A DNA stretch of 598 nt from Escherichia coli. Its GTDB lineage: Bacteria > Pseudomonadota > Gammaproteobacteria > Enterobacterales > Enterobacteriaceae. Under the pieces are notes generated by a model. It did no database searches and had not been told where the DNA came from. It saw only the letters and a list, made by a program, of their open reading frames with translations. The stretch is from the NCBI RefSeq assembly GCF_003334255.1, contig NZ_QOWU01000213.1; one strand, written 5' to 3'. Below are positions 1 through 598 of the stretch, in pieces. Made by a program: the position numbers and the translations under genes. Positions within the stretch are counted from its first letter, which is position 1, and every line of letters begins with the position of its first letter.

Positions 1-237
1 AAAAAAGGCGTTACGGACTTTCAGGGGAAGTAGTGGTCTGGTGACTGGAAATATGTACCGAAAAAAGAGGATTGTAACGACAGGCCGAACTATGAAATTC
101 AGGCCTTATTCACTGCCCCGCCAGTCCCGGTTACATCAGAAGAACTGGTTAAAGCTGTGCACTTTTATGAACAACTAAAACGCGAAAATCCACCAGCATC
201 CGGAAACCTGATTACAGATTCCCAGATAAGGCAATGA
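1..237 (+). pseudogene. 3' part of a protein-coding frame (frame 1) of unknown product, interrupted by an in-frame amber codon (TAG 31-33), ending at TGA 235-237
   Basis: Frame 1 is open from the window edge to 237 except for a single TAG at 31-33. It translates as KKGVTDFQGK*WSGDWKYVPKKEDCNDRPNYEIQALFTAPPVPVTSEELVKAVHFYEQLKRENPPASGNLITDSQIRQ*. The composition is balanced and protein-like, with about 31% G at codon position 1 and frequent CCG, CTG, AAA and GAA codons. There is no in-frame ATG between 34 and 237, and the only in-frame GTG (157-159) would give 26 aa. Frame 2 is also open from 2 to 175, but its translation has no Asp or Glu, is Arg/Lys-rich, and has only about 11% G at codon position 1, so it looks like an out-of-frame shadow. 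Whether the upstream gene simply ends at 33 or the whole stretch is a nonsense-disrupted gene cannot be settled from this window. Confidence 0.4.
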
Positions 238-307
238 GCTACCTGGCGCAGAACGGGCTGATAAGTATGGGGAATGTTTTACGATGAATATTTAGACTAA
301 AGAGTTT

Positions 308-322
308 GTAACGCTATGTAAG
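308..322 (+). promoter_or_regulatory. tandem direct repeat GTAAC-N5-GTAAG (10-bp periodicity), candidate response-regulator binding site
   Basis: Seen directly: GTAAC (308-312), spacer GCTAT, GTAAG (318-322), each half preceded by T. This resembles tandem half-sites of OmpR/PhoB-family regulators, for example the CpxR consensus GTAAA-N5-GTAAA, with 4 of 5 matches in each half. It lies about 85-100 bp upstream of the ATG at 408. It is a motif resemblance only and could arise by chance in AT-rich DNA. Confidence 0.2.
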
Positions 323-397
323 TGATTTTTTCTGGTTTAGATATTTATATGTCCGGCCAAACTGAGGTGTGTTTAAATGTAATTGCACATTGATTGT

Positions 398-403
398 AGG
401 AGG
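398..403 (+). promoter_or_regulatory. Shine-Dalgarno sequence (AGGAGG) for the downstream small ORF
   Basis: A perfect AGGAGG at 398-403 is followed by a 4-nt spacer (AATA) and ATG at 408-410. The in-frame GTG at 369 used by the supplied ORF track has only GAGG directly abutting it (364-367, 1-nt spacer), which is a poor geometry. Confidence 0.7.
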
Positions 404-407
404 AATA

Positions 408-587
408 ATGAAAAACGCATTGCAGTTTTTGTTTGTTGCGTTCTGGTTGTTCGTATCATGTATGCCCATCATCTTCACAGCAAGGTATATGGAAAAAGTT
501 GATGTTTTGATATTAATATTTGGATATATAAATGCCCTTTTTTTAGGGGTGTTCATGGCGGTCATGTGCATTGAATACTGGCGGTAA
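408..587 (+). CDS. small hydrophobic membrane protein, 59 aa, two predicted transmembrane helices, function unknown
   Basis: ATG 408 to TAA 585-587 encodes MKNALQFLFVAFWLFVSCMPIIFTARYMEKVDVLILIFGYINALFLGVFMAVMCIEYWR. There are two hydrophobic stretches (about residues 4-25 and 33-55) separated by a short charged loop RYMEKVD, with a short C-terminal EYWR. A strong SD sits upstream. GC is about 37% with rare codons (ATA x3, TTA, AGG, CGG, GGA). The supplied 72-aa ORF from GTG 369 is the same frame with an N-terminal extension that I consider unlikely. Confidence 0.7.
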   Translation: MKNALQFLFVAFWLFVSCMPIIFTARYMEKVDVLILIFGYINALFLGVFMAVMCIEYWR

Positions 588-598
588 ATACAGCGAAC

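Follow-up and report, generated by a model that had tools for sequence, protein, structure and literature searches.

A probable gene for a 59-residue hydrophobic helical-hairpin protein upstream of hok/sok in Escherichia coli prophage DNA

The DNA analysed here is a 598-nt stretch of an Escherichia coli contig (NZ_QOWU01000213.1), referred to below as the window, and its main feature is an open reading frame (ORF) at positions 408–587 on the plus strand, stop codon included, that encodes an extremely hydrophobic protein of 59 amino acids directly upstream of a prophage hok/sok locus. On balance, the ORF appears to be a real protein-coding gene. A preliminary description of the window had proposed an uncharacterised gene at this place, and our data support that proposal, as a diverged paralog encodes a protein of the same length and the two copies are separated by a dN/dS of about 0.2.

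The paralog was found by tblastn of plasmid records and is 40.7% identical over all 59 residues to the protein of the window. The window protein and its close relatives are called lineage A, and the paralog lineage B. The lineage A product is MKNALQFLFVAFWLFVSCMPIIFTARYMEKVDVLILIFGYINALFLGVFMAVMCIEYWR and the lineage B product, identical in length, is MRKILMYLCISIWIVISCVPIILTSEYLTEASIMALMFGHANALCIGVFISIIYIECWR; phmmer connects the two with E = 3.7e-9 in a search of 1.84 billion proteins. Lineage B lies between ttcA and uspF (the Rac attachment region), where 2.3 kb of a decayed prophage remain (L083 4950–7250, L088 1600–3850). In this remnant the Prokaryotic Genome Annotation Pipeline (PGAP) calls an integrase fragment, a DUF1627 fragment and a frameshifted permease (metal transporter). 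The remnant has no lysis genes and, apart from the paralog, no intact reading frame of note; a 3' fragment of hok lies downstream of the paralog. DNA similarity between the lineages is restricted to the ORF and this downstream hok coding fragment, and the 60 nt upstream of the ORF show 25% ungapped identity. Within the ORF, identity at codon positions 1, 2 and 3 is 0.58, 0.73 and 0.47 (chi-square p = 0.018). The Nei–Gojobori method gave pN = 0.33 against pS = 0.72 (Fisher p = 8e-5) and a dN/dS of about 0.19, which is an approximate value because pS is near saturation. When all frames on either strand are considered, only the 59-aa frame is open in both lineages. The searches returned no housekeeping family, and a second lineage that diverged deeply has kept the ORF; these were two of the points on which the preliminary description had let its proposal of a new functional gene depend.

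Variation within each lineage was also low in the ORF. In lineage A, 6 of 180 sites segregate in the ORF compared with 60 of 430 in the rest of the module (Fisher p = 5e-5), and the ORF is the least variable part of the module. In lineage B the corresponding counts are 1 of 180 in the ORF and 8 of 301 outside it. Indels in the ORF were seen in none of 80 aligned viral-contig loci, and the lineage B ORF is intact in all seven sampled copies. Within-lineage dN/dS gives no test because there are too few substitutions, six in lineage A and one in lineage B. The chance of finding such an ORF was estimated by first-order Markov randomisation of the 598-nt window. An ATG-initiated ORF of at least 59 aa alone occurred in 38% of the randomisations, one that also had GGAGG or AGGAG 3–14 nt upstream occurred in 0.54%, and one that in addition had a grand average of hydropathy (GRAVY) of at least 1 occurred in 0.02%.

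The ORF begins with ATG at 408 and ends with TAA at 585–587. A Shine-Dalgarno sequence with the full consensus, AGGAGG, can be read directly at 398–403 (plus strand), 4 nt before the ATG, just as had been claimed; some haplotypes carry A401G in this element. The longest ORF in this frame, a 72-aa form starting from GTG at 369, was rejected, since an in-frame TAA stands 18 nt ahead of the ATG in lineage B. ATG 408 is thus the homologous start. The protein contains 8 Phe residues and has a GRAVY of 1.31. Kyte–Doolittle means over 15 residues peak at residues 8–22 (2.42) and 41–55 (2.44), with the loop RYMEKVD between the two peaks, and AlphaFold2 predicts a helical hairpin with helices at 2–24 and 31–58 (mean pLDDT 72). 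Hydropathy and structure prediction therefore agree on two transmembrane helices, and the direct reading bears out the Phe-rich, extremely hydrophobic character given in the preliminary description. The rare codons mentioned there are also present in the ORF (AGG, ATA three times, CGG, CCC, GGA and GGG). The argument from base composition held only in part. GC content falls from 44.7% at 1–237 to 37.1% at 238–407 (31% within 251–350) and 36.7% in the ORF, so the drop itself is real. GC at the three codon positions of the ORF is 0.33, 0.27 and 0.50, which indicates that its low GC results mainly from a composition rich in Phe, Ile, Leu and Met rather than from a foreign base composition.

Conserved residues are found in both helices. 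In ten aligned sequences M1, L5, L8, W13, S17, C18, P20, I21, I22 and T24 are invariant in the first part of the protein (1–24), and L36, F38, G39, N42, A43, L44, E56, W58 and R59 in the second (36–59). Helix 1 contains the conserved motif S17-C18-x-P20-I-I-x-T24, and helix 2 has a small-residue face, G39xxxA43xxxG47, of which G47 is nearly invariant. The distribution of charges suggests that both termini face the cytoplasm (N-in/C-in) and the loop the periplasm; in lineage B the N-terminus reads MRK and the loop is acidic. The protein ends in ...CIEYWR, four residues past helix 2, and has no charged C-terminal tail. A Foldseek search against the PDB returned only generic helical hairpins (E > 4).

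The invariant Ser17-Cys18 pair (codons at 456–461, plus strand) is part of a possible lipobox, which reads F-V/A-S-C in lineage A and V-I-S-C in lineage B. The product may thus be a small lipoprotein, from which signal peptidase II would remove residues 1–17. Cys18 would then be lipidated, and the mature peptide of 42 residues would be anchored in the inner membrane by the lipid together with helix 2. The PROSITE pattern PS00013 matches both lineages, including its positional rules (Cys at 18, Lys or Arg in the first seven residues), and matches 0.8% and 1.9% of composition-matched shuffles. Ser17, Cys18 and Pro20 are invariant across two lineages that are 41% identical, and the lipobox of lineage B is canonical. 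However, the strict lipobox is found only in lineage B, as lineage A has Phe at position -3, and PS00013 is prone to false positives among membrane proteins. Cys18 is followed by hydrophobic residues (MPIIFTA / VPIILTS) that prolong the helix of the AlphaFold2 model, whereas mature lipoproteins usually start with polar residues. Processing to a lipoprotein is in our view rather unlikely, though to be taken seriously. It concerns the mature form of the protein and is compatible with the explanation of the gene as part of a cassette.

The AT-rich leader at 238–407 (plus strand) is co-inherited with the ORF and is 94–100% identical in those loci of the lineage A type (type-A loci) that reach that far upstream; the DNA upstream of the leader is mosaic among them. 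A position weight matrix scan predicted a candidate sigma-70 promoter, CTGATA-16 nt-TACGAT, at 258–285 (plus strand). Its score is about that of the adjacent hok promoter, which served as a control, and the same scan recovers the Sok promoter. An Rfam scan found no RNA family inside the window, and the fold of the region 290–450 is not unusually structured compared with shuffled sequences (z = +0.57); on these two grounds a non-coding RNA was rejected as the explanation. On the antisense side of the window the promoter scan gave only weak candidates and no terminator was seen.

These signals bear on the proposal that the ORF encodes a type I toxin under the control of a cis-encoded antisense RNA, which would make a second toxin–antitoxin pair beside hok/sok. 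The protein falls in the size class of type I toxins (small, hydrophobic, about 60 residues or fewer), it is prophage-borne and it adjoins a bona fide type I system. Disrupted alleles (T-run frameshifts and truncations) are present in databases, as would be expected of a toxic gene. However, the scan that detected the nearby Sok promoter gave no convincing antisense promoter or terminator at the ORF, and no RNA family was matched there. The leader shows no structure hiding the ribosome-binding site, and its Shine-Dalgarno sequence is consensus and apparently free, unlike those of typical type I toxin mRNAs. To our knowledge, the characterised type I toxins of E. coli have one helix, whereas two are predicted here. 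In addition, lineage B is intact in 7 of 7 sampled copies without a recognisable partner. A classic type I toxin, like a pinholin-like protein, fits poorly, and we regard it as distinctly improbable.

The window is identical to DNA in many E. coli chromosomes, and the region it comes from is the early-right (nin-like) part of Qin/Rac-like lambdoid prophages. In strain MCJCHV-1 it lies in a lambdoid prophage integrated beside potC. The order of this prophage is integrase, excisionase, exonuclease, dicB, ydfC, repressor, cro-like, ydaT-like, replication and small genes, then the window, and then hokD, a DUF968 gene, rusA, an antiterminator, tRNAs, the lysis cassette and terminase; cII-like and Q genes are also cited in this context. 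Window position n corresponds to 15000+n in locus L001. The last nucleotides of the window (588–598, plus strand) begin an 89-nt spacer that leads to the hok promoter and to hok/sok, which were located by Rfam and by the hokD annotation. The sok match (RF01794) lies at L001 15677–15848, 90 nt past the ORF stop, and scores 106.7 bits (gathering score 59). hokD is annotated at L001 15846–16001 and is followed by a terminator-like hairpin. The hok/sok locus is intact (L001 15677–16090): it comprises hokD, the terminator, a hok promoter (TTGCGG-16-TAGAAT) and, on the opposite strand, a Sok promoter. A weak match to isrK, a small RNA family of Salmonella Gifsy-1, lies just past hokD at L001 16010–16091 (27.2 bits against a gathering score of 50). 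Its position in the prophage is comparable, upstream of a Q-like antiterminator, and it overlaps the terminator hairpin, which probably drives the match.

Among type-A viral-contig loci with enough sequence on either side, a block that comprises the leader, the ORF, the 89-nt spacer and at least the hok leader is inherited as a whole, and the sequences to the left and right of this block differ between loci. As a unit, the block therefore behaves like an accessory cassette that has been inserted. Its location in a lambdoid prophage and its mosaic surroundings agree with the earlier proposal of accessory, horizontally moving DNA. The spacer and the hok leader are found 3' of the ORF in every type-A locus with enough downstream sequence. 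In a large prophage subgroup homology ends at the hok start codon; PhiR42_1 has the same break, followed by transposase genes. The ORF always has hok, or what remains of it, as its neighbour. Morons (reviewed in PMC9928086) are accessory genes that have been inserted between conserved genes of a phage, and HokD is a very strongly transcribed moron in the LF82 prophage transcriptome (PMC9928086). That transcriptome does not bear on the 59-aa gene, because the LF82 prophage does not carry it. The hok/sok of prophage Sp5 (hokW-sokW) assists lysis and phage release (PMC8621323), which makes a lysis- or membrane-related role of the cassette plausible; the report on hokW-sokW makes no mention of a gene upstream.

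The lysis role of a hok/sok of the neighbouring type (PMC8621323) also favours the idea that the 59-aa protein is a holin-, pinholin- or antiholin-like protein that times lysis. Its two transmembrane helices, the conserved GxxxAxxxG face of helix 2 and its phage-borne gene are in line with this. However, the protein stops four residues past helix 2 with no charged C-terminal tail, and it matches no holin profile in PHROGs or Pfam. The lysis cassette is about 8 kb away and has its own class II holin, lysozyme and spanin genes, and lineage B has been kept in a remnant without lysis genes. A lysis-timing protein of this kind is very unlikely.

Several observations weigh against the reading of the ORF as a genuine gene of a hok/sok cassette. 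All six changes in the lineage A ORF are non-synonymous, and they are conservative (V16A, M28I, V31I, I37M, Y40H and L44I). Truncated and T7-frameshift alleles exist at low frequency. The family consists of two lineages confined to E. coli/Shigella-type sequences, so that the comparative evidence amounts to one deep comparison, with the approximate dN/dS given above. PGAP omits the ORF, which is annotated in none of 60 sampled RefSeq records of lineage A. A promoter of its own is not convincing, and a stricter consensus scan returned no promoter in the leader. The gene is known here from its sequence and not from its expression. Finally, the ORF persists where hok is destroyed (lineage B and the subgroup disrupted by an insertion sequence), and hok is found without the 59-aa gene in LF82, among other strains. 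Each thus occurs without an intact copy of the other, and a strict functional partnership with Hok is not supported. The ORF could on such grounds be a chance or decaying frame in DNA that is conserved for another purpose, for example regulation of the cassette or a translation that affects only transcription into hok; the missing PGAP call, the non-synonymous changes, the narrow taxonomic range, the truncated alleles and the 38% of randomisations with an ORF of this length would suit this, but we hold it to be very improbable indeed, since a 41%-identical copy keeps start, stop and length amid DNA that cannot be aligned, codon identity is highest at the second and lowest at the third position, pN falls far short of pS (p = 8e-5), every other frame is closed in at least one copy, the conserved residues form motifs, and the combination of ORF, Shine-Dalgarno sequence and hydrophobicity arose in 0.02% of randomisations.

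We propose that the ORF encodes a 59-residue inner-membrane protein with two hydrophobic helices and a short loop, of which the termini would probably be cytoplasmic and the loop periplasmic. The gene would be the first of a cassette composed of the AT-rich leader, the gene, the 89-nt spacer with the hok promoter, hok/sok and a terminator, and in the early-right (nin-like) region of the prophage this cassette would have taken the place of the 3' end of a phage gene. Rightward transcription may start from the weak leader promoter or may be read-through of the early-right operon after induction. Since the ORF points the same way as early-right transcription, induction should at the least lead to its expression, and its consensus Shine-Dalgarno sequence should give efficient translation. 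The protein would act within the membrane through helix–helix contacts, in which the G39xxxA43xxxG47 face and the S17-C18-x-P20-I-I-x-T24 motif would take part, and would be a non-essential accessory factor. We are highly confident of the part of this explanation that concerns the gene, the membrane protein and the cassette. Our best guess about function, a tentative one, is that the protein acts against infecting phages by exclusion or abortion of the infection, or that it modulates lysis or membrane damage together with Hok. Taken as a whole, as a compromise between these two parts, the explanation is slightly more probable than its negation.

At hokD loci without the 59-aa gene, an unrelated and unannotated hydrophobic ORF of 29 or 30 aa, M(V)LVLKCALAIAAVMAIYCLAVVLMDRLSD, lies directly upstream of the hok promoter (L093 2818–2910 on the minus strand; L094, L095 and L097 at about 540–640; L096). 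It is preceded by AGGAGG at short spacing in four of five copies, the copy in L096 having AGGGGG. All five copies are intact and 91–97% identical with several synonymous changes, and one of the loci has no hok. The region is found in 1,701–2,252 of 5,426 complete E. coli genomes. Homology between hok loci of the 59-aa type and those of the 29/30-aa type begins at the hok -10 box. It is conceivable, if unlikely, that prophage hok/sok loci come with an exchangeable upstream gene for a small membrane protein, either the 59-aa hairpin or lipoprotein or the unrelated 29/30-aa peptide, that this exchangeable partner works with or against Hok in the membrane, for example by setting a threshold for Hok-mediated killing, lysis or phage exclusion, and that the host has kept the 59-aa protein by itself in phylogroup-B2-type strains after decay of the remaining prophage. 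We put this forward as one joint reading.

The lineage A ORF region is present in 1,568 of the same 5,426 complete genomes at 95% identity or more. Lineage B is present in 1,045 of them, including Nissle 1917 and the ST131 strain EC958, and was annotated in 0 of 40 sampled records. Between about a quarter and a third of complete E. coli genomes carry one or the other lineage; CFT073 (lineage A), ST131 and Nissle 1917 are among them. GenBank submitters label the ORF 'hypothetical protein' or 'putative membrane protein', and three phage isolates that are described as inducible carry it. Two matches lie in records with other labels. A 9.5-kb 'plasmid' record of Klebsiella oxytoca (NZ_CP069920.1 8758–8934) encodes a lineage A protein with 95% identity, and the sole match in a scan of 100,044 species genomes is an E. 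coli-like contig (L085) in a metagenome-assembled genome labelled Collinsella; both may be due to contamination or mis-binning. The full-text literature gave nothing usable for peptide strings of the family or for ribosome profiling of carrier strains.

Searches for relatives beyond the two E. coli/Shigella lineages were negative. Pfam gave no match even at E <= 10, PHROGs nothing below E = 0.9 and NCBIfam no relevant match, and sequence searches of PADLOC and the PDB gave none. No model of a known anti-phage defence or exclusion protein in PADLOC, Pfam or PHROGs was matched. Only the two lineages were recovered by phmmer against 1.84 billion protein representatives and by a profile search of 5.8 billion clusters. 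A six-frame pattern scan of the 100,044 species genomes and tblastn of phages and plasmids with both lineages added nothing to them. With Foldseek also negative, the protein could not be assigned to a known family, in agreement with the preliminary description.

What had been taken for an upstream gene at 1–237 (plus strand) is a pseudogene, the remnant of a decayed phage gene of PHROG 660, a group with no assigned role. It has an internal TAG at 31–33 and a frameshift, and PGAP flags it 'frameshifted; internal stop'. Its frame-1 translation aligns to an intact 155-aa protein of mEp460 until about position 196, and compared with that protein the N-terminal part and the true C-terminus are missing. 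The remnant lies outside the cassette and marks its left edge. At 201–214, a second haplogroup, to which L045, L059 and PhiR42_1 belong, has 57 extra bases flanked by a 14-nt direct repeat. The state in the window looks like a repeat-mediated deletion within the pseudogene, or the other version like a duplication. Inside the 59-aa ORF, a run of seven T at 538–544 (plus strand) is a frameshift hotspot. Variants of 55 aa that end in ...FFRGVHGGHVH are present in databases (P0019, P0021, P0024 and P0025); such alleles come mostly from short-read assemblies, and both real slippage and sequencing error are possible. An antisense ORF of 85 aa at 314–571 (minus strand) is annotated as 'hornerin' in the phage records ON470612.1 and ON470619.1 and as a hypothetical protein in PV340562.1. 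It was rejected as a gene because all antisense frames in the paralogous locus contain stops; it is a by-product of the T-rich coding strand, and 'hornerin' is a mis-annotation on the wrong strand.

The 59-aa gene is of moderate interest because it is prevalent, is missing from RefSeq annotation and recurs next to hok/sok. Annotation systematically overlooks small membrane proteins, and this gene is absent from the sampled RefSeq records in spite of its prevalence. Its neighbour is a well-known membrane toxin system, the surrounding part of the prophage is one where genes for defence and toxins are frequent, and its placement is echoed by the unrelated 29/30-aa ORF in the equivalent slot of other prophages. 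Its location in a prophage next to hok/sok makes it a cheap and well-defined candidate for studies of membrane stress, the control of lysis or the exclusion of phages. A functional link with hok would change the description of prophage hok/sok cassettes; without one, the gene is one more orphan small protein.

Comparison with known systems places the protein in what would be a new, narrow family within a known general kind, the prophage-encoded small membrane proteins. Its likeness to pinholins and small exclusion proteins goes no further than size and topology. Class II holins and pinholins, such as S21 of phage 21, have about 60–70 residues, two transmembrane helices and a small-residue zipper in helix 2. 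The 59-aa protein is likewise phage-encoded and has two predicted transmembrane helices and a small-residue face in helix 2. Unlike class II holins it has no highly charged cytoplasmic C-terminal tail and no PHROG or Pfam holin profile match, and in L001 the lysis cassette with its class II holin, lysozyme and spanin genes is about 8 kb downstream. A dual-start motif was not seen either, though no search aimed at it was made. Imm of phage T4 is a small membrane protein with two transmembrane helices that blocks superinfection. Our protein shares its size class, its predicted two-helix topology and the context of an accessory, non-structural phage gene; it differs from exclusion proteins of the Imm type in having no Pfam, PHROG or PADLOC similarity and in being known here from sequence alone. 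Entericidins and colicin lysis proteins are small membrane-active lipoproteins with polar mature parts and no second transmembrane helix. A short precursor and a lipobox-like Cys18 motif in both lineages recall them, whereas the hydrophobic stretch after Cys18 and the second helix do not, and lipidation is putative.

The closest neighbours of the protein in the genome are members of the Hok/Gef family, represented in prophages by hokD of Qin and hokW-sokW of Sp5. Like these, it is a small hydrophobic peptide, predicted to be in the inner membrane and encoded in the same prophage cassette, its ORF being directly upstream of hok/sok in lineage A and of a hok fragment in lineage B. It has no sequence similarity to the Hok/Gef profiles of Pfam and NCBIfam. 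Hok/Gef proteins have one N-terminal transmembrane helix and a periplasmic tail, whereas two hydrophobic helices fill the 59-aa protein, and unlike at hok/sok, no mok-like overlapping frame, antisense RNA or fold-back leader was found at its ORF. In its genomic organisation the cassette is comparable to a moron. The full definition of a moron includes a promoter and a terminator of its own and expression from the repressed prophage; as a promoter the 59-aa gene has the moderate, predicted candidate at 258–285. As in morons, the gene is part of a discrete, conserved block with mosaic, varying flanks, which is inserted at the expense of a phage gene, where homology to PHROG 660 (phrog_660) stops near 196, and which is closed by a terminator after hokD.

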